Of a stretch of 64,000 nt of DNA, positions 13,450 to 61,141 are shown piece by piece. Made by a program: the position numbers and the translations under genes. The stretch is from Mobula hypostoma (lineage: Eukaryota), in contig NC_086097.1 of the NCBI RefSeq assembly GCF_963921235.1, forward strand, positions 92,754,001 to 92,818,000. The letters run 5' to 3'. The notes beneath the pieces were generated by a model. The model worked only from the letters and a program-made list of their open reading frames with translations, was not told where the DNA came from and searched no databases. The stretch's first letter is position 1, and each line of letters begins with the position of its first letter.

Positions 13450-16025
13450 ACGGACTGCAGAGCCTGCCGGCCTCGACGCTAGCAGGCATGAACTTTCGGT
13501 TGCGGCCCCTGCCGTTGGTCTCGGCGGCTCCAACACCTCAGGACATATTCAAAACCCGGACTCCAGCAACGACCATGGAGACATTCAAAGCGATCGCGCA
13601 ACCACCAACTGCGACTCCAGCCTTGAACTCCAGGCCGGGTCTTTATGTGCTGCTGTTGTGACTCCCGTCTCCCCTTCCCCCACCACCACTCCGCAGCCCC
13701 GTCTTCCTCAGATCCCACCGTCAACTCCTGGGCCCTCAGAGGCTCCATCTTCCTCTCACCCCAACCCTCCCCTCTCCATTGACACCCCCAGCCTCCCCCC
13801 TCCCCCCTCTGATCCCAGCTCTCATCCGTGCCGGGTCTTTACCATCCCCTCCGACCTTCAACTGTCGGAGGCAGAACACTCTGTTCTCAGTAAGGGCCTC
13901 ACGTTTGTCCCCCTTCGCCCACACCTCAGCGAGTTCCGTGTTCGCCATGATGCGGAACTTTTCTTCCGCCGTCTCCGTCTCCGAGCCTACTTCTTCGGCA
14001 AGGACTCTTCCACCCCCACCGATGACCCCTTCTCCCGTCTTCATCCCTCCTCTTCTTCATGGACACCCCGCTCTGGTCTTCTGCCTGCTCTGGATCTCTT
14101 TTATTGCCAACTGCCGACGGGACATCAACCGTCTCGACTTCACCGCACCTTGTCCCCATTCCAACCTCACTCCTTCGGAACGCTCTGCTCTCCACTCCCT
14201 CCGCACTAATCCTAACATTATTATTAAACCCGCTGATAAGGGGGGTGCTGTTGTAGTCTGGCGTACTGACCTCTACCTTGCCGAGGCACAGCGACAACTC
14301 GCGGATACCTCCTCTTATTTACCCCTCGATCGTGACCCCACTAAGGAGCACCAGGCCATTGTCTCCCACACTATCAACGACTTTATCCGCTCAGGGGATC
14401 TCCCATCCACTGCTACCAACCTTATAGTTCCCACACCCCGCACTTCCCGTTTCTACCTCCTACCCAAGATCCACAAACCTGCCTGTCCTGGCCGACCTAT
14501 TGTCTCAGCTTGCTCCTGCCCCACCGAACTCGTTTCTGCATACCTCGACACTGTTTTATCACCCCTTGTTCAATCCCTTCCGACCTATGTTCGTGACACT
14601 TCTCACGCTCTTAAACTTTTCGATGATTTTAAGTTCCCTGGCCCCCACCGCTTTATTTTCACCTTGGATGTCCAGTCCCTATATACTTCCATCCCCCATC
14701 AGGAAGGTCTCAAAGCTCTACGCTTCTTTTTGGATTCCAGACCTAATCAGTTCCCCTCTACCACCACTCTGCTCCGTCTAGCAGAATTAGTCCTTACTCT
14801 TAATAATTTCTCCTTTTGCTCCTCCCATTTCCTCCAAACTAAAGGTGTAGCTATGGGCACCCGTATGGGTCCTAGCTATGCCTGCCTTTTTGTTGGGTTT
14901 GTGGAACAATCTATGTTCCGTGCCTATTCTGGTATCTGTCCCCCACTTTTCCTTCGCTACATCGACGACTGCATTGGCGCTGCTTCCTGCACGCATGCAG
15001 AACTCGTTGACTTTATTAACTTTGCCTCCAACTTTCACCCTGCCCTCAAGTTTACCTGGTCCATTTCTGACACCTCCCTCCCCTTTCTAGATCTTTCTGT
15101 CTCTGTCTCTGGAGACAGCTTATCCACTGGTGTCTACTATAAGCCTACTGACTCTCACAACTATCTGGACTATTCCTCTTCTCACCCTGTCTCTTGCAAA
15201 AACGCCATCCCCTTCTCGCAATTCCTCCGTCTCCGCCGCATCTGCTCTCAGGATGAGGCTTTTCATTCTAGGACGAGGGAGATGTCTTCATTTTTTAAAG
15301 AAAGGGGCTTCCCTTCCTCCACTATCAACTCTGCTCTTAAACGCATCTCCCCCATTTCACGTACATCTGCTCTCACTCCATCCTCCCACCACCCCACTAG
15401 GAATAGGGTTCCCCTGGTCCTCACCTACCACCCCACCAGCCTCCGGGTCCAACATATTATTCTCCGTAACTTCCGCCACCTCCAACGGGATCCCACCACT
15501 AAGCATATCTTTCCCTCCCCGCCTCTCTCTGCATTCCGCAGGGATCGCTCCCTACACAACTCCCTTGTCCATTCGTCCCCCCCATCCCTCCCCACTGATC
15601 TCCCTCCTGGCACTTATCCGTGTAAGCGGAACAAGTGCTACACATGCCCTTACACTTCCTCCCTTACCACCATTCAGGGCCCCAAACAGTCCTTCCAGGT
15701 GAGGCATCACTTCACCTGTGAGTCGACTGGGGTGATATACTGCGTCCGGTGCTCCCGATGTGGCCTTTTATATATTGGTGAGACCCGACGCAGACTGGGA
15801 GACCGCTTTGCTGAACATCTACGCTCTGTCCGCCAGAGAAAGCAGGATCTCCCAGTGGCCACACATTTTAATTCCACATCCCATTCCCATTCTGACATGT
15901 CTATCCACGGCCTCCTCTACTGTAAAGATGAAGCCACACTCAGGTTGGAGGAACAACACCTTATATTCCGTCTGGGTAGCCTCCAACCTGATGGCATGAA
16001 CATTGACTTCTCTAACTTCCGCTAG
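13450..16025 (+). pseudogene. PLE polyprotein: RT (FYLLPKIHK, PGRPIVS, DVQSLYTSIP, GVAMGTRMGPSYA, RYIDD) + Cys linker (CKRNKCYTC) + GIY-YIG (VIYCVRC..YIGET)
   Basis: The frame of ORF 13658..14209 is open from the 13450 junction to LPALDLF. One extra T in the run at 14099-14102 shifts it into ORF 13779..16025. No ATG at the truncated 5' end. Confidence 0.9.
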
Positions 16026-16314
16026 GCCCCACCTCCCCCTCGTACCCCATCTGTTACTCTTTTTAATGCACACATTCTTTCTCTCACTCTCCTTTTTCTC
16101 CCTCTGTCCCTCTGAATATACCTCTTGCCCATCCTCTGGGTCACCCCCCCCCCCGTCTTTCTTCCCGGACCTCCTGTCCCATGATCCTCTCGTATCCCCT
16201 TCTGCCTATCACCTGTCCAGCTCTCGGCTCCATCCCTCCCCCTCCTGTCTTCTCCTATCATTTTGCATCTCCCCCTCCCCCTCCAGCTTTCAAATCCCTT
16301 ACTCACTCTTCCTT

Positions 16315-16356
16315 CAGTTAGTCCTGACGAAGGGTCTCGGCCTGAAACGTCGACTG
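16315..16356 (+). ncRNA. Minimal type-I hammerhead ribozyme (dimer-type), intact core
   Basis: Helix I uaguc/gacug, CUGACGA at 16324-16330, short helix II, GAAACGUC at 16344-16351 with a loop-less palindromic helix III (ACGU). Predicted cleavage after C16351. Confidence 0.85.
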
Positions 16357-16599
16357 CGCCTCTTCCTATAGATGCTGCTTGGCCTGCTGCGTTCACCAGC
16401 AACTTTGATGTATGTTGCTTGAATTTCCAGCATCTGCAGAATTCCTGTTGTTTATCTTGTTGTAATCTCATTACTGTCTCTGGAACCTTACTGTATGCAG
16501 ATAAACTGCTGTGCTTCCTGAATTTAAAACAGTGATTGCAGTGCTACAACATTTGAATTACTGGACCAGAAATCCAGAGATATGGATGAGCAGTCTAAA

Positions 16600-22627: not shown

Positions 22628-23824
22628 CTAAAACATAAGAGATGTTTTTTAACAGCAAGATCCCACTATAGCACTGTTACAGTAATCAGACCATCAGTTT
22701 TCTTGATTGAGGGTAAAATAATGGACTCAGCACCAAAGATATTTTTTATCTTCTTTGAAGAAAGCTGGGAGATTATACACATTCAACCAAGAGCCTTCAG
22801 ATTCATGCTTTATCCTAGCTGAGATATTGTACCACTGCAACACACTAGTGTACAGCGTACTTAAATCATCAGCATTGATGATGAACCTGCAATCTTCTGA
22901 AATGACGTACAAAAGCAAACAATGAAGCTGCACAAGCCAATGTACACCAACCCAAAGGGGATTATAAGTGAACAAATAGCTTTATTAAAGTGCACAGTCC
23001 ACATTTCGGGTCAAGGCTCATCACCAGTACTTCATGACCTTTCATGAAAGGTGTCAGTATGAAACGTTAACTGTTTATTCCTCTCCATAGATGCCTGATG
23101 TGCTCAGTTCTTCCAGATTTTGTGTGTGTTACTCTGGATTTCCAATATCTGCAGAATCTCGTGTGCTTTATTGAAGTGGATAGTTTAAGAAGATATCTTA
23201 AAGGAAGGTTGAAGGAGAAAAAGTAGAAATAGAGAAACAATGGGTCTGAAATGGACTCCAGGTGAACTGAATATGTCAACACCAACTATTTGCAAGGAGT
23301 ATTTAGCAAAGCCTAATGGAAAATTCCCAAATATGATATACATATACTTATTTTCATTAAAGTGGAAGTTAATTAATCTCAAAAAGATAGAAGGATATGT
23401 TAGAAGTATGAGATGAGGAAAACAGTGGAAAAAAGCTTCAGAGGAGGATTTACACCAGCACATGCCTCCAGTATATGAGGAGGAATTTCTTCAAAGGACA
23501 GCAATAGCTTGAAATTGTGTATCCATAACTTCTACGGATAGGCAGATGAAGGTTTCAGGGCTAAAATGACCAAGCATACGCTGTATACGGGTATCCAGAG
23601 ACAGAGGAATCTGAGGTACAATTGGCTAAGATATGATCTGATTGTGGAGCACGTGGTCTGAGTGGCCTATTCTTAATGTTCTTATCCATGTCAATTATTA
23701 AACTAAAACCAATCAACTACACAAAACCCCAGTAGGAGGGGGTACAAAATTGGCATTTACACCACACCCCTCATATAAGACCTAGCATTCTTATATTAAT
23801 ATCAACACAAGAACAAATTCGTAC

Positions 23825-24658: not shown

Positions 24659-27466
24659 CAAGTGTCCCTCGCTTTTCAAACGTTCGCTTTACAAAACCTC
24701 ACTGTTACGAAAGACCTACATTTGTACCCTGTTTTCGCTTTCAGAAGGTGGTTTTACTGTTACGAAGAAAGGCAGCGCGCGATAAAAAATCAGCGCACAT
24801 CCCAAGCAGCCGCTCTCCCCGGATTCGGAACGGCATTTTACTTTAACACGTGCCTGTGAGCAGCCGTTTGCAAGATGAGTTCTGAGGTATTGGAAAACAC
24901 TAAAAGAGCTCGTAAGGGTGTTAAACTTAGCGTAAAACTAGACATAATTAAGCGTTTCGATCATGGTGAACGAAGCAAGGACAAAGTGAGTTTGGCTTGT
25001 GGAAGTTGACAAAGATGATGTTGAAGAGGTTTTGGCATCCCATGACCAAGAACTGATAGATGAAGAGCTGATGCAATTGGAAGAGGAAAGGATAACAATC
25101 GAAACCGAATGCAGTATCGAACTGAATGTGAAGCAACTGCGTGAGATTTTCGCTGCAATGATAAAGCACGACTTTAATTTTGAAAGGGTACGTAGGTTTA
25201 GGGGATATTCGCAGGATAGTTTGAGTCCTTACAAACAATTGTATGATAGAAAAATGCGCGAGGCTCAGCAGTCAAGCAAGCCTTCCACATCAGCCACAGC
25301 AGACGATGAACCTCGACCTTCAACATCGAGGCAGGCAGTCATAGGAGAAGATGAGCTGCCTGCCCTGATCGATGATGAGATGACACCCCCGTGTCCCAGC
25401 ACCCCAACACCCAGGCCCTGGACAGATACTGTACTGATTTGCGGAGAATGCAGCAGTAGCCGGGAGGCACACAGCACATCTTTAAGAAAAAAGCCGAAAT
25501 AAACAAGCTAATTAATTAGGTGCCGCCGACACGTAATTGTCGGCCCAGATCAGTGCCGATTTCCGATTGCATCGCCTCAGATCTGAGCCAACAATTATGT
25601 GTCGGCGGCACCTAATTAATTAGCATGTTTATTTTGGCTTTTTTCTTAAAGATGTGCTGTGTGCCTCCCGGCTACTGCTGCATTCTTCGCAGCAATGTAT
25701 TGGGTCGGTGGCCCGGAGGGTGGGGGCCACTGCACCACCCAACCTGCGACAACTCAGCCTAACACACCATCATCAGTTTGCTCGGCAAGCTGTCTTCCCG
25801 ATTCCTGTAAGTGATACTACACTGTACATACATTATTTCTATTTTATATAGGCTGTGTATTTTTTTGTGTTATTTGGTAGATTTGGCAGCCTCATAGCTT
25901 AAAGGTTACTGGAGAGCGTGTTTATGCCAACAGCGCTTGCATTAGATTTTCTGCCAAGAGCACTTGCGTGAGATTTTCGCTACGGAGATCTGTCCAGGCA
26001 ATCGTTGTACAGAAGTATTTCTACTTTATATAGGCTGTGTATTTATCATATCATTCCTGCTTTTACTATACATGGGAGATCCAGTGGATGTGGTGTACCT
26101 TGACTTTCAGAAGGCATTTGATAAGGTACCACATAGGAGATTGGTGGGTAAAATCAGAGCTCATGGCATTGGGGGGAGGATATTGACATGGATAGAAAAC
26201 TGGTTGGCAGATAGAAAGCAAAGCGTAGCAGTGAATGGGTGTTTCTCGGAATGGCAGGTGGTGACTAGTGGGGTGCCACAGGGCTCGGTATTGGGACCAC
26301 AGCTGTTTATGATTTACTTCAATAATTTAGAGGAAGGCATTGTGAATAACATCAGCAAGTTTGCTGATGATACTAAGCTGGGTGGCAGTGTGACATGTGA
26401 TGAGGATGTTAGAATTCATGGTGACTTGGATAGGCTGGGTGAGTGGGCTGAAACTTGGCAGATGGCGTTTAATGTGAATAAGTGTGAGGTTATTCACTTT
26501 GGGAGCAAGAACAGGAAGGCAGATTATTATCTGAACAGTGTGGAGTTAGGTAAGGGAAAAATACGAAGAGATCTAGGAGTACTTGTTCATCAGTCTCTGA
26601 AGGTGAATGAGCAAGTGCAGCAGGCAGTGAAGAAGGCTAATGGAATGTTGGCCTTTATTACAAAGGGAATTGAGTACAAGAGCAAGGAAATCCTTTTGCA
26701 TTTGTACAGGGCCCTGGTGAGACCACAACTGGAGTATTGTGTGCAGTTTTGGTCTCCACGGTTAAGGAAGGACATCCTGGCTGTGGAGGAGGTGCAGCAT
26801 AGGTTCACTAGGTTAATTCCTGGGATGTCCGGACTGTCTTACGCAGAGAGGTTAGAGTGACTGGGCTTGTACACGCTGGAATTAAGGAGATTGAGGGGGG
26901 GATCTGATTGAGACATATAAGATTATTAAAGGATTGGACAAGATAGAGGCAGGAAATATGTTCCAGATGCTGGGAGAGTCCAGTACCAGAGGGCATGGTT
27001 TAAGAATAAGGGGTAGGTCATTTAGGACAGAGTTGAGGAGGAACTTCTTCTCCCAGAGAGTTGTGGAGGTGTGGAACGCGCTGCCTCAGAAGGCAGTGGA
27101 GGCCAATTCTCTGGATGCTTTCAAGGAGCTAGATAGGTATCTTATGGATAGGGGAATCAAGGGTTATGGGGACAAGGCAGGAACCAGGTATTGATAGTAG
27201 ATGATCAGCCATGATCTCAGAATGGCGGTGCAGGCTCGAAGGGCCGACTGGTCTACTTCTGCACCTATTGTCTATTGTCTATATGCTACTGTTACTTTAG
27301 GTTTTAGGTGTTATTTGTCATGATTTGGTAGGTTATTTTTGGGTCTGCAAACACTCACAAAATTTTCCCATATAAATAAATGGTAATTGCTTCTTCGCTT
27401 TACGACATTTCGCCTTACGAACCGTTTCATAGGAATGCTCTACCTTCGGACAGCGGGGGAAACCTG
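24659..27466 (+). mobile_element. Tigger/pogo internal-deletion derivative, copy 1 (contains a CR1)
   Basis: TA TSD and TIRs caagtgtccctcgc / gcgggggaaacctg. Retains the N-terminal HTH start (RKGVxLSVKLDIIKRFDHGE) and the acidic C-terminus (DVEEVLASHDQELIDEELMQLEEE); no DDD domain. Confidence 0.85.
26071..27278 (+). mobile_element. CR1/HER1-type LINE, 5'-truncated
   Basis: VDVVYLDFQKAFDKVPH, GVPQGSVLGP and FADDTK motifs; (tattgtc)n tail; ctata direct repeat at both ends. Confidence 0.92.
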
Positions 27467-34300: not shown

Positions 34301-34863
34301 GGCAAGTGCAAGTCATTCACATTGGCTCCAAAAGGAATGGCTCAGAATACTTGTTCAATGATGAAAACTGTGAAACAGTGGCAGTCTAAGATCCCTGGAC
34401 ACAGATCATTAAAACATTTTTTAAAATGAAGTGCAGATTCCGGTGACGTCATCGTCCAGAATGGCAGCTTAAATCAACAGCTCCTCCGGAAACAAAAATA
34501 TCTAAATTGATAAGGGGGGCAAGAATGGGAAAAAAGAATGGAGATTAAAAAAAGCATCACTGCAGAGCCTACGGAAGAGTGAGGTGCAACGTGCGGCTCT
34601 CCTACATGTGCACGTGGTGGCGAGGCTGACGCTGGGCCTCGTTCAAGTGAAGCAGCAAATATGATAAAAATTCTGGAAGAGATAAGGGAAGTCCAAAAAG
34701 ATATAAAGCAGCAACTCAATGATATTAAGTCAGAGCCCGCCAACGTCAATCAGAAAATAGCAGTGGCAGAGACGCGAATTGAGAAGGTGGAAGATCGCGT
34801 GCAAAACGTGGAACAGATACTAAGTAAGATGATAAAAATATTAAATCAACAGGAAAGTAAATT

Positions 34864-34970
34864 CCTTCAGTTAGTCCTGACGAAGGGTCTCGGCCTGAAA
34901 TGTCGACTGCGCCTCTTCCTATAGATGCTGCTTGGCCTGCTGCGTTCACCAGCAACTTTGATGTGTGTTG
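34864..34970 (+). mobile_element. 107-bp mini-Penelope insertion (hammerhead + hairpin only)
   Basis: Near-identical to 16311-16417, flanked by a perfect 14-bp TSD caggaaagtaaatt (34850-34863, 34971-34984) inside L1 ORF1. Confidence 0.9.
34868..34909 (+). ncRNA. Minimal hammerhead ribozyme copy (helix III variant GAAAUGUC)
   Basis: CUGACGA core at 34877-34883; a CpG-type C>T change in helix III. Confidence 0.75.
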
Positions 34971-35852
34971 CAGGAAAGTAAATTGCTTGATCAGGAGGGA
35001 AGATTGTGACGGAAAAGTATCAGGATTTATAATGTTCCCAAAGGAACGGAGGGATTGTTGATTATGGAATTTGTAGAAAGCTGCTGCGGGACGCGCTGGA
35101 GATTCTCCTGACTATGGAGATTGAAATTGAGAGGGCACATCGTTCGCTCGTCCCACAGCCTCCTGAAGACAGAGAAAGTAAGCCGCGCTCCATAGTACTT
35201 AGATTCCTTCGATTCAACAGCAAGGCGGAGATTCTACAAAGGGCCTGGGGTAAGAAGAGGGTGTTTTGGAATGGGAAGTTGACAATTTCAATCATGATTA
35301 CCCCCAGCGGTCCTACAGAAACGGAAGGAATATTCTGAAGCGAAACGAATATTAAAGCAAGAAAAGATTAAATTCCAAACCCCATACCCTGCTAAACTGA
35401 GAGTATTTTACGAAGGAGGGATACAGCTATATCAGAAAGTAGAAGAGGCAACTACAGACATGAACGACAGAGGACTGCCCGTTAGCATGGTCAAACCAAG
35501 GGAAAGTCTGGCTGAGCAGTTATCCCGATCTGCTGAGGAAATAGTAAGAGAACCGAGAAAGTGGGGGGGGGGGGGGGGGGAGAGGACAAGAGAAGGATAT
35601 TAGAAAGAGACTGTGAGTTCTCCGAAGACAGCCCTCACTTCCTCCAGAAGAGCCATAAGGTTTGGCTAACTTTAAAAGTGCGGATAAACTAAACGGAAGC
35701 AAAAATAGATGGTGATAGACCTATCTCAAGAAATACATATTATAATGTGGATTTTATATTACTCAATTTTTTTTATTCATTCATTCACTCCTTTTCCCCC
35801 ACCTAAATGAGAATATATATATGGAAAGAATACACAGGGAAATCATTCCTGT

Positions 35853-36737
35853 GTCTCCCCACTGATCTCCCTCCTGGCACTTATCATTGTAAGCGGAACA
35901 AGTGCTACACATGCCCTTACACTTCCTCCCTCACCACCATTCAGGGCCCCAGACAGTCCTTCCAGGTGAGGCGACACTTCACCTGTGAGTCGGCTGGGGT
36001 GATATACTGCATCCGGTGCTCCCGATGTGGCCTTCTATATATTGGCGAGACCCGACGCAGACTGGGAGATCGTTTTGCTAAACACCTACGCTCTGTCCGC
36101 CAGAGAAAGCAGGATCTCCCAGTGGCCACACATTTTAATTCCAATGGGCCATTCCCATTCTGACATGTCTCACCACAGCCTCCTCTACTGTAAAGATGAA
36201 GCCACACTCAGGTTGGAGGAACAACACCTTGTATTCTGTCTGGGTAGCGTAGCCTCCAACCTGATGGCATGAACATTGACTTCTCAAACTTCCGCTAATG
36301 CCCCACCTCCCCCTCGTACCCCATCCATTATTTATTTATATGCACACATTCTTTTTCTCTCTCTCTCTCCTTTTTCTCCCTCTGTCCCTCTGACTATACC
36401 CCTTGCCCATCCTCTGGCCTTTTCTCCCCCCCTCCCCCTTTTCTTTCTCCATAGGCCTCCTGTCCAATGATCCTCTCATATCCTTTTTGCCAATCAACTG
36501 TCCAGCTCTTGGCTCCATCCCTCCCCCTCCTGTCTTCTCCTATCATTTCGGATCTCCCCCTCCCCCTCCCACTTTCAAATCTCTTACTAGCTCTTCTTTC
36601 AGTTAGTCCTGACGAAGGATCTCGGCCCGAAACATCGACTGTACCCCTTCCTAGAGATGCTGCCTGTCCTGCTGCGTTCACCAGCAACTTTTATGTGTGT
36701 TGCTTGAAATTCCAGCATCTGCAGATTTCCTCGTGTT
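35853..36737 (+). mobile_element. Penelope-like element 3' fragment (GIY-YIG + 3'UTR + hammerhead at 36600-36641, variant GAAACAUC)
   Basis: Near-identical to 15590-16450; sits in the L1-B inter-ORF spacer. Confidence 0.9.
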
Positions 36738-39445
36738 ATAGATTTTTTTACTTACTTTTATAGGTACTGCAGCGGGGGCCCTCAACTCACAGGTAGGAGG
36801 GGCTATCCCCCACGGCTAGACATTTCCTCTAGCTCAACCCAGGGTCATCAACAGACCCCAGCCTTGGAATCACACCTTCGTTACCTTTTTTTTTATTATT
36901 CGTGTTTCTTGGCTCTTACTTGTTCAGGGCGTAGATCGATTAAGTTATATTCTGCAAATTTCAATGGCATACTAACAGATAAATACACATGGCTAAGGAC
37001 AAAGTAAAATTCATTTCTTTTAATGTCAATGGGCTGTTAAATCCAATCAAACAAAGTTAAATTCTATCAAAAATGAAAAAAGAACAAACCCATGTAGTAT
37101 ATTCACAGGAAACTCACTTCAGTGATAATGAGCATGGAAAATTAAAGAGAATGGGTTTCACTAATTTGTTTTTCTCCTCATATAAATCAGGACATAGAAG
37201 AGGAGTTGCTATTTTCATCTCAAGCAAGCCAAATTTTGAAAAAGTATTCGAAATGGGAGATAAGGAGGGCAGATATGTTCTGGTAAGGGGGAATATAGAC
37301 GGAAATCCAGTTACTTTATTGAATATATACGCACCCCCAGGAAGAGATATTAGTTTCTTCCAGAAAATTACTAATATTATGGTAACGGAAACAGAAGGTC
37401 TCTTGATATGTGGGGGAGATTTAAATTTACAATTACAACTAAAGTTAGACTCTTCCAATAGAAAAACTTATGAAACAAAGTCCTTACATAAGAAAGTTAA
37501 CACTCTTTTTGAGGATGTTGGTCTAATTGATATATGGAGGGATCTTTTTCCCCAAACGAAGGGATTACACTCATTATTCTGCCCCCCCCCCCATTCCGTA
37601 TATACAAGAATAGACTATTTCATAACATTTGGAAAAGATAAAGACAAAATAAACACCTGTGGAATTGGGACAATAGATGTAAGTGACCATGCACCTATAT
37701 ATTTATCTGTTGATTTTGACCTACAACCATAGAATACTATCTGGAAACTAAATTCAAGTCTACTCAATGATTCCTATTTTAAAGAACAAATTAAAAAAGA
37801 AATTGGTCTTTACTTAGAATTCAATGATAATGGGAGAGGTTTCACCTCCCATTCTATGGGATACTCTGAAGACCGTCTTAAGAGGGAAAATTATAGCGAT
37901 ATCTTCATATAAGAAAAAAAATAAGGGATAAAACATTAGAGGAATTACAAAATAAGCTGAAGGAACTAGAAAAAAAACACAAATTGAGTTTGGCACAGGA
38001 TACACTAGAGGAAATTTTAAAAATTAGGAATAAAATTAATAGTTTGGCTACACAAGAAATTAGAAAAAATTTAATGTTTCTGAAACAGAGACACTATGAA
38101 AGTGGATCTAAATCTATGAAAATACTGGCGTGGAAACTGAAAAAAAGATAGCAGAAAATACAATTCATAGTATTAGGGATCCAAGAACAAAAGTGATTAA
38201 AAAATAAGGTAAGTGAAATTCAAGAAGCTTTTGAAATGTTTTACAAAACTCTATATTCCAAAAGTTCCAGGGGAAAGCATAACTGAAATTGACACCTTCC
38301 TGAATTCTTTAGAGTTACCCACTTTAAGTAAAGAACAAAATAGAACGATGACTGCTGACATAACTGAAGCTGAACCAAAAACTGCAATTAGTGTGCTTAA
38401 ATTAAGCAAGTCACCAGGATCAGATGGATATACCGCAGAGTGGTATAAGGAATTTAGAAATGAGTTAATTCCTGTTTTGCTCCCCACACTGAACTGGACC
38501 CTAAGAAAGGAACAAATGCCACCTAGCTGGAAGGAGGTGATAATCTCAGCTATACCGAAAGAAGGCAAGGATAACATGGAATGTGAGTCCTTTAGACCAA
38601 TAACTGTTCTTAATGTGGATTATAGAATATTTACCTCCATCATGGCCAAAGGATTAGAAGAGTTTCTACCCACACTGATACATAATGATCAGCCAGGTTT
38701 TATACAACAACGCCAAACACAGGACAATATACGAAGGACACTTCACATTATGGATCATATAAAAAAATGAAATTGAAGCAATAGTGATAAGTGTGGTCGC
38801 TGAAAAGGCATTTGATTCGGTTAATTGGAATTTTCTTTACAGAGTTTTACATAGATTCGGTCTACATGACACAATTATTAAAACTATACAGGCACTATAT
38901 GACAATCCTACTGTTAGGATTAAAATCAATGGATATTTATCTAATAGTTTTACCCTAGAAAGGGGCACGAGACAGGGTTGTGCATGGTCACCGCTACTCT
39001 TTGCATTATATCTGGAACCATTAGCTCAATACATCAGACAAAATGAAGATATCAGGGGAATTGCTATTAAAGGGACAGAACATAAATTGGCCTATTACGC
39101 GGATGGCATTTTGATCTATCTAGGGCAACCAACATACTCTTTATCTAAATTGATGCAATCCTTTGAACAATATGGCCAATTATCAGGATACAAGATCAAC
39201 ATAGATAAAACCCAACTACTTTCATATAACTATAGCCCACCAAGAGAAATGGAAAGTAGATATCCCTGGGCATGGCAAACAGAGTCTGTCAAATATTTGG
39301 GCATCATTATGCCAAAAGATTTGACAAAATTATCAGAATGCAATTATCAGCCTATATATAAAAAAAATTAAGGAAGATATAACAAGATGGAACCTAATTC
39401 CTTTTCTTGGTCTGAGTTCAAGGATTGAATCTATTAAAATGAATA

Positions 39446-41053
39446 CAAGTGTCCCCCGCTTTTCGAACGTTCGCTTTACGAAACCTCACTGTTACGAAAG
39501 ACCCACATTAGTACCCTGTTTTCGCAAACAGAACGTGTTTTCACTGTTACGAAAAAAGCAGCGCGCAATAAAAATCAGCGCGCGATAAAAAGCAGCGTGC
39601 GCCCCAAGCAGCCGCTCCTCCCCCAGATTTGGAACTGCATTCTCGCCAGCATTGCTTAAACACATGCCTGTGAGCAGCCATTAGCAAGATGAGTTCTAAG
39701 GTATCGGAAAAGCCTGAAAGAGCTCGTAAGGGTGTTACACTTAGCGTAAAACTAGACATAATTAAGCCTTTTGATCGTGGTGAACGAAGTAAGGACGAAG
39801 TGAGTTTGGCTTGTGGAAGCTGACGAAGATGATATTGAAGAGGTTTTGGCATCCCATGACCAAGAACTGATAGATGAAGAGCAGATGCAATTGGAAGAGG
39901 AAAGGATAACAATCGAAACCGAATGAGAAATGATAAAGTACAACTTTAATTTTAAAAGGGTATGTAGGTTTAGGGGATATTTTCAGGATGGTTTGAGTGC
40001 TTACAAAGAACTGTATGATAGAAAAACACACGAGGCTCAGCAGTCAAGCAAGTTTTCCACATCAGCCACAGCAGACGACAAACCTCGACCTTCGACATCG
40101 AAGCGGGCAGAGATAGAAGATGAGCTGCCTGCTCTAATGGAAACAGACGACAATGAGATGACACCCCAGTGTCCCACTACCCCAACACCCAGGCCACGGA
40201 CAGATACCAATTCGTGGAGAATGCAGCGGTAGCCGGGAGACACACAGCACATCTTTAAGAAAAAAGCCGAAATAAACATGCTAATTAATTAGGTGCCGCC
40301 CGACATGTAATTGTCGGCCAAGATCAGAGGCGATGCAATCGGCAATCCGCACTGATCCGGGCCGACAATTACGTGTTGGGCGGCACCTAATTAATTAGCT
40401 TGTTTATTTCGGCTTTTTTCTAAAAGATGTGCTGTGTGCCTCCCGGCTACCGCTGGACCCCTGCATGCTTCGTGGCAATGTATCAGGTCATTGCCTGGAG
40501 GGTGGGGGCCACTGCACCACCCAAACTCCGACTCAGCCTAACACACGATCATCAGTGTGCTCGGCGCTGTCCCAATTCCGGTAAGTGATACTACACTGCA
40601 CATACATTATTTCTACTTTATATAGGCTGTGTATTTTTATGCGTTATTTGGTATGATTTGGCAGCTTCATAGCTTAAAGGTTACTGGAGAGAGTGTTATT
40701 GCCAACAGCGCTTGCGTGAGATTTTCTGCCGACGGCGCTTGCGTCGTGTTTCTACGAACAGCGCTTGCTTGAGATCTTCACTACAGAGAATAGTTCAGTA
40801 ATGATTGTGGAAAAGTATTTCTACTTTATATAAGCTGTGTATTTATCATATCATTCCTGCTTTTACTAAATGTTACTGTTATTTTAGGTTTTATGTGTTA
40901 TTTGGCATGATTTGGTAGGTTATTTTTGGGTCTGCGAACGCTCACAAAATTTTCCCATATAAATAAATGGTAATTGCTTCTTCGCTTTACGACATTCTGG
41001 CTTACCAACTGTTTCATAGGAACGCTCTACCTTCGGATGGCGGGGAACACCTG
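39446..41053 (+). mobile_element. Tigger/pogo internal-deletion derivative, copy 2
   Basis: TA TSD (39444-39445, 41054-41055). Removing it restores L1 ORF2 atg aat ata ctg ccc (MNILP). Colinear with copy 1. Confidence 0.9.
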
Positions 41054-44000: not shown

Positions 44001-44447
44001 ACACAAAGTTCCCCTAATCACTTACAGAGCAACCACTTTTTAAGCACATAGGGAGTGCAACTTAGATTAACATAACAGTAATTCGGGTCATTGGATCTGG
44101 ATGACAAACAGAGAACAAACAATTCACAATTCCATTGTACTTTAATACAGCAATGTATCTCAAAGCATTTCAGAGAAGTGCATCCAAATAAGAATGATGC
44201 CAAGCCACAAAACTGATGTCATGCTGCGTAAATTAACAAGTGGCTTCAAGATGAGAGAAGTGATATTGAAGCAGAGAGATTTACGGAGGGAATTCCAAAG
44301 CTCAGGAAGGACCAAGCCAACTGTAAAAGCAGAGTGACTAAATTCTGCAATGACCAACGACCCAGAAGTGGAAGCACAGCTGAAGATTACAGATACTTTG
44401 AGCAGACAACGATTTGAAAGCAAAGATGTGAATTTAAAATACAGTTA

Positions 44448-44607
44448 ACATACATAAAAGTTGCTGGTGAATGCAGCTGGCCAGGCAGCATCTCTAAGAA
44501 GAGGTACAGTCGACGTTTCGGGCCGAGACCCTTCGTCAGGACTAACTGAAAGAAGAGCTAGTAAGAGATTTGAAACCAGCATCTGCAGATTTCCTCATGT
44601 TTGCATT
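44448..44607 (-). mobile_element. 160-bp mini-Penelope insertion with inverted 3' tip
   Basis: Minus-strand hammerhead segment (44448-about 44574) followed by a plus-strand ccagcatctgcagatttcctcatgtttgc tip. 15-bp TSD tttaa(a/t)atacagtta at 44433-44447 and 44608-44622. Confidence 0.85.
44507..44548 (-). ncRNA. Minimal hammerhead ribozyme, consensus-perfect copy
   Basis: Minus strand reads cagttagtc CTGACGA a gggt ctcg gccc GAAACGTC gactg. Confidence 0.85.
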
Positions 44608-45183
44608 TTTAATATACAGTTAGTGCTTAATGGGAAGCAAAAGTAGATCAGAAAGATCAAAAGATAGGTGAGTGGTGCAGGTTCATTCTTGGGCAGCAAA
44701 GTGTAGGATAACCTCAAGTTTATGACGATAACGTTGAGGAAAACAGGGCTGGAATGCACTGGAATAATCAAAACTAAGCTAACAAAATGACAAAAGATTT
44801 TCAGCAGCCAGAACGATACAAGGATAGAGTTAAGCAGTTAGAGACGTGGAAATAAGTAAACAAGAGATTCTGCAGATACTGGAAATCCAAAACAACACAC
44901 ACAAAATGCTACATGAATTCAGCAGATCAGGCAGCATCTATGAAAATGAATAAACAGTTAAGATTTCAGGCTGAGATCCTTCAGCAGGACCAGAAAGGAA
45001 GGGGAAAGATACCAGAATTAAAAGGTGGGGGGAGGGGAAGGAGGGCAAGCTAGAAGGTGATAGGTGAAGCCAGGTGAGCAAAAAAGGACCAAGCATTTTA
45101 ATTCCTATCCCCATTCCCGGTCCAACATTGAATATTTACTCTTTTCCATCTAGATATTGCCTGATCTGCTGAGTTCATCCAGC

Positions 45184-46037: not shown

Positions 46038-47050
46038 CTTTCCCCAACCAGTGTCATTAGCGCTCTTCTCCCGTGTCAAAAGCTGTATCTCAAAGCATGT
46101 GATAATAATAAACCAAACCACTGCAGTGCCTTTTCTCTTTGTCTCCCCTCCCTCCTCCCACCTTTTGCCCCGCTACGCCCCGTACCGTACGTTCTCCTCG
46201 CCCCTGCCCCACCATCACTCACTCTCACGCTGCACGATCAGACTCCGGGACGCACACCGACAATCACTTCCGTCCTGCTTCGCGTCACACCAATAACTGT
46301 CCCCACAACGCGCCGCGCATAGACCCTATTCTCAGCTGTGTGTCAGTAACTTCGTCCCCTGAACTTCCGTCCGTAAATCGTTCCCATGGCGCGGCCGACG
46401 CTAACGACTTCCAAGTGTGCCAAACAAAATAGCACAGAGGAGTAATGTGAAAGAAATCATTGTTAAGTTGCTTTGGAAAAGAAAGAAATGTTCCTACATA
46501 AGGAATCTCAGTAGCGAAATGAAGTACAGCCCGAGGTATAAAACTAAGTTTACTTTTAAAGATGCAAACACGAGGAAATCTGCAGATGCTGGAAATTCAA
46601 GCGTGTCGCTTACTTTTAAAGGTATAACTTTTCAACGTTAAATCACTAATAATGTAAACAGCTAAAGGACCAGGCTCCCGATTGTAGTTGAAGATAAACC
46701 CTTGGTGAGAAATTATCGTTTTGGAAAGTTAACTAGCGGGTTGTCCCGCAGGTGGCTCGAAGGAAAGAGTTCAGTGTGTTGTTTCCATCACAACGACGCC
46801 GTGTGCTGGAATTGTTTCCCGAATGCTCGTTGTTGCAACTCAAAAAAAGTGACCGGGAACATCGTCAATTATGAACAGAGTTCTCCGTGGCTGCTGCCCA
46901 AGGCGTTATCAGAAGGAATTACCACGCTGTTTATGCGATGCTGTCACGTTTATCGTACCGACTAATAATGAGCCCATTGTAGAGCGTAAGTTTAGGAGGG
47001 CTGAAAAGTTTTCCTCCGCAGCTGTCGCTCGACACGCTGCAGTTTGTTTG
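46038..47050 (-). promoter_or_regulatory. RPAP1: Probable RPAP1 promoter and non-coding first exon(s)
   Basis: Local CpG enrichment; two ETS-like acttccg sites (about 46266 and 46363); minus-strand donors aaag|gtgagt (exon end 46038) and aga|gtgagt (46223). The ATG exon has an acceptor, so an upstream exon is required. Confidence 0.6.
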
Positions 47051-57400: not shown

Positions 57401-57589
57401 CGTTTCTGCTCCACGACGCGTTGGAATTTTACCCAAGATTGCGCTGGCTGCATTGGGTTTTATGATGCCGTGAACCCTACCATTGTTTTCCTATACGTAC
57501 CTAGAATTGTATTAACGCACTGGAATGTTTGCCTGCAACTCTGATGGCCCTTCACACCTTTGATCTCTTACCCGGTTTGTACATATTCC

Positions 57590-59350
57590 CTGATCTTTAA
57601 CCCTGTCCCGGAATTGATCTTGTTTCTGATATTTACCTCTGACCCGGGATTCCACTCGTTCCTACTGTTCACCTCTGACCCGGGACTGAACTCGTTCCTG
57701 GTGTTTACTCCTGACCCTGGATTCCACTTGTTCCTGGTGTTGACCCCTGACCCGGGATTCCACTCGTTCCTAGTGTTTACCCCTGACCCTGGATTCCACT
57801 CGTTTCTGGTGTTACCCCTGACCTGGGACTGAATCTGTTTCTGGTGTTGACCCCTGACCCAGGACTGAACCGGTTTCTGGTGTTGACCCCTGACCTGGGA
57901 TTCCACTCGTTCCTGGTGTTTACCCCTGACCCGGGATTCCACTCGTTCCTGGTGTTTACCCCTAACCCAGAATTGAACTCGTTCCTGGTGTTTACCCCTG
58001 ACCTGGTACTGAATTTGTTTCTGGTGTTTACCCCTGACTCAGGACAGAACCTGTTCCTGGTGTTGACCCCTGACCCAGGATTCGACTTGTTCCTGGTGTT
58101 TACCCCCTCACCTGGGATTCCACTCGTTCCTGGTGTTTACCCCTGACCCGGGATTCCACTCGTTCCTGGTGTTTACCCCTGACTCGGGACAGAACCTGTT
58201 CCTGGTGTTGACCCCTGACCCAGGATTCCACTTATTCCTGATGTTTACCCCCTGACCTGGGATTCCACTCGTTCCTGGTGTTTACCCCTGACTCGGGACA
58301 GAACCTGTTCTTGGTGTTGACCCCTGACCCTGGATTCCACTTATTCCTGGTGTTTACCCCCTGACCTGGGATTCCACTCGATCCTGGAGTTTACCCCTGA
58401 CCCGAGATTCCACTTGTTTCTGGTGTTACCCCTGACCTGGGACTGAACTCGTTCCTGGTGTTTACCCCTGACCTGGGACTGAACCTGTTTCTGGTGTTGA
58501 CCCCTGACCCAGGACTGAACCTGTTTCTGGTGTTGACCCCTGACCTGGGATTCCACTCATTCCTGGTGTTTACCCCGACCCGGGATTCCACTCGTTCCTG
58601 GTGTTTACCCCTAACCCAGAATTGAACTCGTTCCTGGTGTTTACCCCTGACCTGGTACTGAACTTGTTTCTGGTGTTTACCCCTGACTGAGGACAGAACC
58701 TGTTCCTGGTGTTGACCCCTGACCCAGGATTCGACTTGTTCCTGGTGTTTACCCCCTCACCTGGGATTCCACTCGTTCCTGGTGTTTACCCCTGACCCGG
58801 GATTCCACTCGTTCCTGGTGTTTACCCCTAACGCAGAATTGAACTCGTTCCTGGTGTTTACCCCTGACTCAGGACAGAACCTGTTCCTGGTGTTGACCCC
58901 TGACCCAGGATTCGACTTGTTGCTGGTGTTTACCCCCTCACCTGGGATTCCACTCGTTCCTGGTGTTTACCCCTGACTTGGGATAGAACCTGTTCCTGGT
59001 GTTGACTCCTGACCCAGGATTCCACTTATTCCTGGTGTTTACCCCCTGACCTGGGATTCCACTCGTTCCTGGTGTTTACCCCTGACTCGGGACAGAACCT
59101 GTTCCTGGTGTTAACTCCTGACCCAGGATTCCACTTATTCCTGGTGTTTACCCCCTGACCTGGGATTCCACTCGTTCCTGGTGTTTACCCCTGACTCGGG
59201 ACAGAACCTGTTCTTGGTGTTGACCCCTGACCCAGGATTCCACTGGTTCCTGGTGTTTACCACTGACCCAGGACTGAACCCGTTCCTTCATGTTCACCCC
59301 TAACCCAGGACTGCACTCAGATCTTGATGTTCAACCCCTGCCAGGGACTT
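57590..59350. repeat. 36-bp minisatellite, about 48 units (consensus cctggtgtttacccctgacccgggattccactcgtt)
   Basis: Direct tandem array with variant units and occasional 1-bp indels. Confidence 0.95.
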
Positions 59351-60957
59351 CCCTCATTCCCATTCCACGTACAACATTCTTCCATACTATTACATACATA
59401 ATAGTCATCTACACCTCCGATTTTATAAATCATCTGGGGATTCTTTCAATTCCATTTAGTTTATTTGATGTTAGAATCCCTGCCAGTCATTTTCACTGTC
59501 TGCAATTTTACCCATTACGCTGACCCTACAAACCAAATGGATTCCATTCCTACACTGGAATTTTTGGGGATTTTATTTGCTTTTTGCAAGTTTATTCCAC
59601 AATTCCCTTCACTAACTAGGACACTACCAGATGCTGGGAACTATATTCACTGTCCTATATTTTATCTAACATCTGGGATTGCACACTGCCCTGTGATTTT
59701 ATTTTACTTCCATTGGTTTATATTTTGTTTGTATATTTTCCATAGTTTAAAGATATGTGATGGGGGCAGGGCAGTCACTCTCCATTGAAAGTTCTCACAG
59801 ATTGTAGTAAACATCCAAAGTATTCTGCTCCAGAGGTCAAGGAGATTGGTCAGTAGACCGATACAAGGTCTTGACGCTCTAGTATCAGACATCCATTTGC
59901 CTCCACAGCTGCTACTTGACCCTCCAAGTCCTCAAGTAATTAGTATTTTGGGTAAGGAACAGACTCTGTTAGATTTTACATTCTGAAATAAGAAATGCCT
60001 GATTTAGTAACCCTGTTGGATAGGGTCCTCAGGGAAGATAAACCTGCATTAAATTTCAAAAATTACTTGGCTGAAAATAAATCCAAGCTGTTCTATCAAA
60101 ACAAAGGATATTATGAGGACAGGTTGGAAATCGCATTAAGACACTACAGCAAAAGGGCAGTGATTCACATTAAAATGATTTTCAGCAAATATACTGTACA
60201 TTCTTTAATGCCATAAAGACACACAAGGAAAAATGGTATATCAATAGATCACAGGACTGTGTTAAATATAAGCAAAAATTTATAAAGTTGCTACAAAAAG
60301 CAGTAGGCTAAGGAGCTGGGTGCATGTTTGACATTAGCAAACGGTGATAAAGAAAGACAAAATAGAATATACTATTATGTACAAATTTACATTTTCCCAT
60401 TTTATTCTCTGTTTTTGCCAGATCTTTGCCTTCGCATTTAACCTATCTATATCCCTTAGATGCTTCCTTATATCCTCATCACAAATTATTTCCCTACCTG
60501 ATTTTGTGTTATCACCAGGCTTAACAACCATACCTTTCATCCCTTCATCCATGTCTTTTAGATAATATGTAAACATGTTGGAGACCTCAGCACAGTAAAT
60601 ATATTTAAGACAAGGTTGGATTGATTTTTGCTTAATAGGGGAATTAAGGGTTGGGGGAAAAGGCTAGTAGGTGGAGATGAGTCCATGGCCAGATCAGCCA
60701 AGATCTTACTGAATGCGGAGCAGGCTCGATGGGTCTGATGGCCAACTCCTGCTCCTATTTCCTATGCTCTTATGTTCTCCTATCCCTGTGGCATGCTACT
60801 TGTCACATCCTGCCAACTACAGAAAGACATCACTTGTGACTATCATGTTTCCCGTTAGTCAGCTGGTCTTCAACAATATGTTACCTCATCTACCACCAGA
60901 TTTCATTTTGACTATAGTTTTCGACGTGGACCTTAACAAAAGCCTTGTGGAAGTCTA

Positions 60958-61141
60958 ACAATATTCATTGGTCTTCTCTATCCAGAGTACACGTCTCTTC
61001 ATTGCATTGGTCAAGCACAATTTTCCTTGCACAAAACCATGCTGACTTTACAATATTCATTGGTCTTCTCTATCCAGAGTACACGTCTCTTCATTGCATT
61101 GGTCAAGCACAATTTTCCTTGCACAAAACCATGCTGACTTT
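60958..61141. repeat. Perfect 92-bp tandem duplication within a CR1 remnant
   Basis: 60958-61049 is identical to 61050-61141. Confidence 0.9.

Follow-up and report, generated by a model that had tools for sequence, protein, structure and literature searches.

The 107-bp insert is probably a 5′-truncated copy of a Penelope-like element (PLE), produced when that element's enzyme began a single round of target-primed reverse transcription and broke off early. Within the window, that is, the whole 64,000-nucleotide stretch of Mobula hypostoma DNA analysed, it lies in an old L1 ORF1 between the copies of a target-site duplication (TSD), has a closely related parent element and a recurrent 3′ end, shows microhomology where its 5′ side joins the host, and runs unbroken through the predicted hammerhead cut site (Table 1). 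The insert is a known kind of PLE product, an ordinary truncated end.

Table 1 Features of the insert, its host locus, the parent element and the sister insertions (positions in the window).
Feature	Position	Strand	Comment
Insert, 107 bp	34864..34970	+	Corresponds to parent 16311-16417, 105/107 identical
TSD left copy, 14 bp	34850..34863	+	Last 2 nt also match the parent (microhomology)
TSD right copy, 14 bp	34971..34984	+	
Host, decayed L1-type ORF1	34583..35510	+	Carries stops and frameshifts; the insert splits it
RT remnants of the same L1 as the host ORF1	38213-39371		Further right
Minimal type-I hammerhead motif of insert	34872..34909	+	Called from core sequence and helices
Helix I	34872-34876 / 34905-34909		
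Hammerhead core	34877-34883		
Extra A before helix II	34884		
Helix II, 4 bp	34885-34896		
GAAA	34897-34900		
Predicted cleavage site	34904/34905		Inside the insert
Insert 3′ end	34969..34971	+	First recurrent end of the family (parent 16416-16419), inferred RT start site 1
Closest parent copy, whole	~13453-16456		
[quoted passage not shown]
Parent 3′ module	16026..16456	+	Pyrimidine-rich UTR, hammerhead, two end sites, tail
Parent hammerhead	16319-16356		
Parent end site 1	~16418		
Parent end site 2	~16456		
Sister short insertion	44433..44622	-	Main arm (parent 16288-16416) and inverted tail arm; 15-bp duplication, 1 mismatch
Sister micro-insertion	46550..46621	-	Tail-only arm (from parent 16417) and ~7 inverted nt of site 1; exact 12-bp duplication
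Young-arm starts	~13453, 15048, 15588, 15828, 16288, 16309-11, 16409, 16417, ~16427		Parent coordinates

The flanking 14-mer occurs exactly twice in the window (at 34850 and 34971) and is the sole exact 14-bp direct repeat at that spacing in its whole length. As background for the sister insertions (Table 1), chance duplications of at least 14 bp were found at 7 of 400 random intervals and those of at least 12 bp at 11 of 400, while duplications of 10 bp or less are background (58 of 400) and were left uncounted. A homologue search with the left piece of the host ORF1 returned 22 proteins. Four of them carry PF02994, one is annotated as an L1 RRM domain protein, and the top named matches belong to the rays Hemitrygon, Hypanus and Mobula. 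Because the host ORF1 is colinear at zero offset with all 22 homologues once the insert and one repeat copy are discounted, we regard the repeat, on sequence comparison, as a true target-site duplication, and the original prediction of a 107-bp insert with a perfect 14-bp TSD holds. The 5′ joint is ambiguous by a 2-nt microhomology to the parent (34862-34863) and the 3′ joint by 1 nt (34971 also matches the parent).

Two side observations concern the same locus. The host target (34983-34990) and site 1 of the element (16415-16422) have a common 8-mer, which occurs eight times in the window, three of them in PLE copies; the likeness reflects chance or target preference, the host bases being native L1 codons. 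Approximately 900 bp downstream of the insert, a second, longer truncated copy of the PLE family (35855-36737; parent 15588-16452, 89% identical) sits between the ORF1 and the RT remnants of the same L1.

The closest parent copy encodes an ORF with DKG, YIDD, GIY-YIG and linker Cys motifs, the 5′ part of which is missing or broken. Its Pfam matches, to RVT_1 (E 2.5e-5) and to GIY-YIG (E 7.7e-4), are weak and fall short of that database's cut-offs. The ORF has 817 homologues with E values of 1e-50 or less; among those with names, the closest are from one ray and two sharks, with 71-78% identity. The linker Cys motif is present in 106 of the 107 homologues with a recognisable GIY-YIG motif, among 120 examined. 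According to PMC8557442, a Zn-finger-like Cys motif within the linker that joins RT to endonuclease marks Neptune, and Nematis shares it. Thus the parent looks Neptune-type, its linker motif pointing to Neptune or Nematis rather than Poseidon.

The insert carries the young-subfamily alleles of this parent, and differs from the copies at 49k, 36k and 44.5k at 6, 12 and 13 of its 107 positions. Two positions differ from the parent: a CpG transition at 34901 is found in the insert alone, and the second change is on the parent's side. On the contig allele shares given below, the insert would belong to a young PLE subfamily largely confined to organism A.

We found neither poly(A) nor a tRNA gene in the insert, and no A-box or B-box: 0 of the 28 and 0 of the 3 motif matches in the window fall inside it. 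The absence of coding sequence, poly(A) and Pol III boxes had been noted in the original prediction; two of the six frames are open over the 35 codons, which we take to be chance.

The features of the joints also bear on a highly improbable origin, in which a fragment of PLE RNA was inserted in trans by the L1 machinery or captured in break repair. A 14-bp duplication is within the L1 range and counts for such a capture, and L1-type elements are present in the window. However, the 3′ joint lacks poly(A) or an A-rich cut site of the L1 type, the insert ends exactly at a PLE family end, and its sister copies show the PLE-specific pattern of an inverted arm plus tail with 12-15-bp duplications.

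The insert had been described as ending after its first hairpin, which is not simply so: its 3′ end is the first recurrent end of the family. In the window, 3′ ends of the family recur near parent 16416-19 and 16453-58. We also aligned the contigs of four public runs to the 3′ 621 bp of the parent (157,852 records in run X1; run X11 is RNA by guess), and positions 16419 and 16453 are present among the 24 listed of 1,851 loose contig ends. The insert lacks the ~40-nt tail beyond site 1, and stops in the 3′ strand of a stem-loop around that site, which is predicted alike in three longer copies. For the PAc element of the anole, RNA is needed to +172 though reverse transcription starts at +111-118, i.e. 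~55 nt beyond the start (PMC11167929). By analogy, a 107-bp unit without the tail that completes the site-1 stem-loop would be unable to be remobilised. The insert is likely a dead copy, since this tail is absent and the palindrome for dimer pairing is lost.

Both sites are used in two sister insertions in the window, at 44433-44622 and 46550-46621. In each, one arm ends at each 3′ site, in opposite orientation, and the two arms represent neighbouring stretches of the element with hardly any overlap. Such a layout resembles twin priming on a single RNA, with one nick primed per site; the open-access papers found that name both twin priming and Penelope are, by title, on subjects other than PLEs. 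An older head-to-head PLE mini-insertion at 22979-23178 has a 14-bp duplication (1 mismatch) and a short arm that is little more than the hammerhead. For the long copies at 16k, 36k, 47.5-48.8k and 49k we found no convincing TSD. Tail-to-tail joints of site 1 and site 2 (16419, 16454) on opposite strands were seen in four contigs of X1 and three of X5, and may stem from the insertion of new copies into site 1 of older copies.

The sister insertions also speak to the possibility that the insert is a solo pseudo-LTR (pLTR), in which a longer pLTR-ORF-pLTR insertion came first and recombination between its direct repeats left the 107-bp unit in the original TSD. We consider this very unlikely. 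It would yield an identical sequence, and a full-length cDNA could end at the hammerhead front edge; against it, recombination would have had only a short repeat of 107 bp to act on, a 5′ pLTR is absent from all long copies in the window, and the inverted-arm micro-insertions (44.5k, 46.6k) cannot arise in this way and indicate that primary products of very small size are common. For rotifer PLEs, solo pLTRs are mentioned in PMC3846280.

The 5′ breakpoints indicate whether the insert is one truncation among many or a member of a discrete family. The nine young-family arms in the window have nine distinct parent starts, the start of the insert being held by one of the nine. These nine starts, together with the identity to the parent, support the heavily truncated PLE insertion that was one of two alternatives in the original prediction. 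The other, a SINE- or retrozyme-like family mobilised by the PLE enzyme, fared poorly: apart from its private CpG transition the insert carries nothing diagnostic, its pair of ends is not repeated in any other copy in the window, and the 107-bp unit forms no tandem array among the 16 tandem-repeat rows of the window, where such arrays had been proposed as a check.

The contig data are consistent with this. They show neither a step in depth at 16310 nor a peak of contig beginnings or ends, and 16309-11 is not among the 24 loose ends listed of 1,851. The parent's marker alleles have shares in X1 of 0.34 and 0.33 inside the unit and of 0.36, 0.26, 0.36 and 0.23 upstream; in X5 the same six markers are at or below 0.022, except one at 0.157. 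These shares come from 8 of 40 listed positions and are of summed contig depth rather than copy number, and so constitute moderate evidence. Because they are similar inside and upstream of the 107-nt unit, the young subfamily appears to extend upstream as often as the PLE family does, and not to be mainly a short unit.

Some observations nevertheless depart from a plain spread of starts. We aligned 18 PLE arms. Four of them have starts farther upstream, three begin close to site 1 and six were dropped, either because their starts vary with the reference (20.4k+, 20.3k-, 23.1k+, 21.4k+, 45.1k+) or for a low score (19.4k-). The five well-defined starts left to count, between -36 and +84 of the core, lie at -36, -15, -4, -3 and +10, and none of these five arms starts in the next 74 nt, cut site included. 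Under a uniform model this clustering has P ~0.009, with small numbers and a range chosen post hoc. In X1, a multi-copy joint from 16350 to 16309, the 5′ coordinate of the insert itself, has a depth of 90.8 against ~5.2 for unique flank; other X1 joints go back to 16320, 16324 and 16352 (among the 12 listed of 222 rows). Summed depth inside the unit is 1.76 times that of the adjacent UTR and 1.29 times that of the ORF end, which is a measure of depth and not of copy number. Breakpoints distributed as in random truncation had been named as the outcome that would speak against a mobile unit: starts are spread, as described, but short-arm 5′ ends look enriched at the hammerhead front edge. It is possible that this edge is a hot zone for 5′ ends across several subfamilies rather than the mark of a one-master family.

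It is on these data that a discrete, SINE-like non-autonomous family, with its own master copy and mobilised in trans by the PLE enzyme, would have to rely: the short-arm ends near the front edge, the one contig joint at the 16309 coordinate and the somewhat higher depth inside the unit. Non-autonomous PLEs do exist (PMC8557442). We accord the family a slender probability, as the insert has no private diagnostic allele or Pol III box match, just one in nine young arms has its start, the allele shares inside the unit equal those upstream of it, and the unit lacks the tail completing the site-1 stem-loop, which the enzyme would need by analogy with the findings of PMC11167929. A truncated copy of the longer element remains our preferred reading.

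The insert contains a minimal type-I hammerhead motif without an intramolecular helix III. It was thought to start 4 nt before the hammerhead, which holds only if counted from 34868; in the register set by the core, its first base is 8 nt ahead of helix I and 13 nt ahead of the core itself. Pairing in 12 window copies is found in 89.8% of 98 cells, compared with 13-42% for slid registers. These 12 copies show no two-sided covariation, and column shuffles score as well. Rfam gave no match on the insert at the gathering score, nor with the limit relaxed to E 10; the motif is therefore called from its core and helices. Folding of the 107-mer alone is unremarkable (z 0.70) and does not produce the hammerhead, the hammerhead fold lying 2-4 kcal/mol above the minimum. 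A search with the hammerhead-core pattern had 0 matches in viral, metagenome and prokaryote genome contigs.

The predicted cleavage site lies inside the insert, as had been claimed, and is also spanned by the copies at 16k, 36k, 44.5k, 47.5k and 49k. The private C-to-T change at 34901 breaks the palindrome for dimer pairing and takes the predicted intermolecular helix from -3.1 to +1.2 kcal/mol. A single minimal hammerhead motif shows no cleavage and dimers show low cleavage (PMC4209133), and in the anole PAc element hammerhead mutants leave insertion unaffected, the main template being unprocessed RNA (PMC11167929). Since PLEs use uncleaved RNA as template and a minimal hammerhead has to dimerise to act, copying across the predicted cut site would, by analogy, be expected for a PLE. 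The original prediction's view that an uncleaved RNA was copied is fair and no surprise, being the published rule for PLEs (PMC11167929). In this reading the hammerhead is a passenger in the insert.

Two joints in X1 contigs also touch the hammerhead. One goes back from 16356 to 16320 (depth 38), making a near-exact tandem duplication of one minimal hammerhead, which could form the dimer that such motifs need. The other (depth 52) links the site-2 end back to 16352, which immediately follows the predicted cut; this could be a template jump from a cleaved RNA end, or chance, as it is one of four listed joints there.

The hammerhead is likewise the starting point for considering the insert as a monomer of a non-LTR retrozyme copied from a self-cleaved circular RNA, a possibility to which we give almost no credence. 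The insert does carry a type-I hammerhead, and retrozymes, 51 to 972 bp in length and including solo monomers, are argued to derive from PLE pLTRs (bioRxiv 10.64898/2026.07.22.740005). However, the unit is absent as an array from the 16 tandem-repeat rows, is neither permuted nor bounded at the cut site, and has the minimal type of motif, in contrast to the canonical type in retrozymes (PMC7229834). Although small size, non-coding content, the type-I hammerhead and kinship with PLE pLTRs are common to both (PMC7229834, bioRxiv 10.64898/2026.07.22.740005), retrozymes are tandem repeats with circular RNAs, whereas the insert is a solo, TSD-flanked, colinear fragment of its parent.

Returning to the truncated PLE copy, we considered why its 5′ end falls at the hammerhead front edge. 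Run-off at an RNA 5′ end near this edge is a serious but tentative possibility, and plain random truncation is given the same weight. Polymerase stalling we think unlikely; it was marked down because a stall would be expected at helix I's 3′ base (~parent 16356), and no start among the five counted arms falls at that point. An RNA 5′ end would be a more natural cause of front-edge ends than a stall on the hammerhead helices, and the short-arm ends may mark the 5′ end of the element RNA. The front edge (16295-16321) comprises a pyrimidine tract, with a similar tract at the front edge of older subfamilies, followed by two AG dinucleotides and an initiator-like hexamer, which we take to be a possible splice acceptor or transcription start. 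Neither signal fits the insert exactly, since it starts 5-7 nt upstream of both. In Drosophila virilis Penelope, the 5′ UTR intron starts 46 bp downstream of the transcription start (PMC2377424) and extends as far as helix I (PMC4209133).

A more specific proposal, which we find on balance doubtful, is that the insert is an integrated 'strong-stop-like' cDNA, in which reverse transcription starts ~100 nt from the RNA 5′ end and runs off just before the hammerhead. The product would then either jump template, giving a long copy, or be sealed in as a 100-130-bp mini-insert. If so, short copies would map the start or splice acceptor of the element RNA, and pseudo-LTRs and head-to-head arms would be explained without ribozyme cleavage. 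Among open-access papers we found none linking Penelope to strong-stop products, and the run-off idea may still be published elsewhere.

We propose the following course for the event. If the enzyme acts like that of the anole Poseidon element, its GIY-YIG domain would nick both target strands ~14 nt apart. Reverse transcription would start internally at site 1 on uncleaved element RNA, copy back through the hammerhead and end 8-10 nt past helix I, and the 5′ joint would be sealed by microhomology. For PAc, two internal RT starts, nicking and extension of both strands, and insertion without hammerhead cleavage are described in PMC11167929; this biochemistry is of a Poseidon-clade element, while the present one looks Neptune-type. 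De novo PLE insertions with a median length of 128 bp, resulting from 5′ truncation, have been recorded in Chlamydomonas (PMC9977147).

Comparison with other PLEs places the insert and its sisters close to the truncated copies of endonuclease-containing (EN+) elements (PMC8557442, PMC3846280). Both derive from a parent with RT and a GIY-YIG domain at its C terminus, have a pair of 3′ ends ~40 nt apart, are truncated at variable 5′ points and show inverted arms (here in the sisters), a short TSD and 5′ microhomology; an optional 30-40-bp tail between the two 3′ ends and an inverted arm are described for EN+ PLEs in the same papers. The TSDs of rotifer PLEs, which also have microhomology at their 5′ joints, are 8-10 bp (PMC3846280), compared to 12-15 bp here, and the apparent front-edge enrichment of 5′ ends is not stated in the available text of PMC8557442 and PMC3846280.

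Anole PAc (PMC11167929) resembles the present family in having the hammerhead ~90-130 nt upstream of two 3′ ends, inserts that span the cut site, an AT-rich target and a duplication ending in ATT. It differs in being Poseidon, whereas the parent here has the linker Cys motif of Neptune/Nematis, and in having a start codon where the hammerhead core here reads ACG. The minimal hammerheads of metazoan PLEs (PMC4209133) have the same core, extra nucleotide before helix II and short helix I, lack helix III, and are palindromic at 15.2-16.2, as is the parent; here helix II is 4 bp and the palindrome of the insert was lost by the CpG transition. Such hammerheads are mostly solo motifs, 'probably related to truncated PLEs' (PMC4209133). 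Chlamys PLEs in Chlamydomonas likewise make very short insertions by 5′ truncation, yet they belong to another clade, with an N-terminal endonuclease, no canonical hammerhead and a microsatellite target (PMC9977147).

Other repeats in the window include a 36-bp minisatellite at 57589-59360 (~49 copies, with a 109-bp higher-order period) and two related fold-back elements at 25440-25691 and 40224-40455, with 111-121-nt arms, a 10-nt spacer and 27-bp tandem units nearby. There is also a perfect 92-bp tandem duplication at 60958-61141, which is either recent or an assembly artefact.

Taken alone, the insert is one of very many decayed PLE ends and matters little. It does provide a clean, young PLE case, verified against the empty site, that fits the 2024 model of internal initiation in a different (Neptune-type) clade. 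If 5′ ends pile up genome-wide at the hammerhead front edge, and not at the cut site, they would form a large natural data set, which would bear on the start point of PLE RNA templates and on whether hammerhead cleavage ever takes place in vivo.
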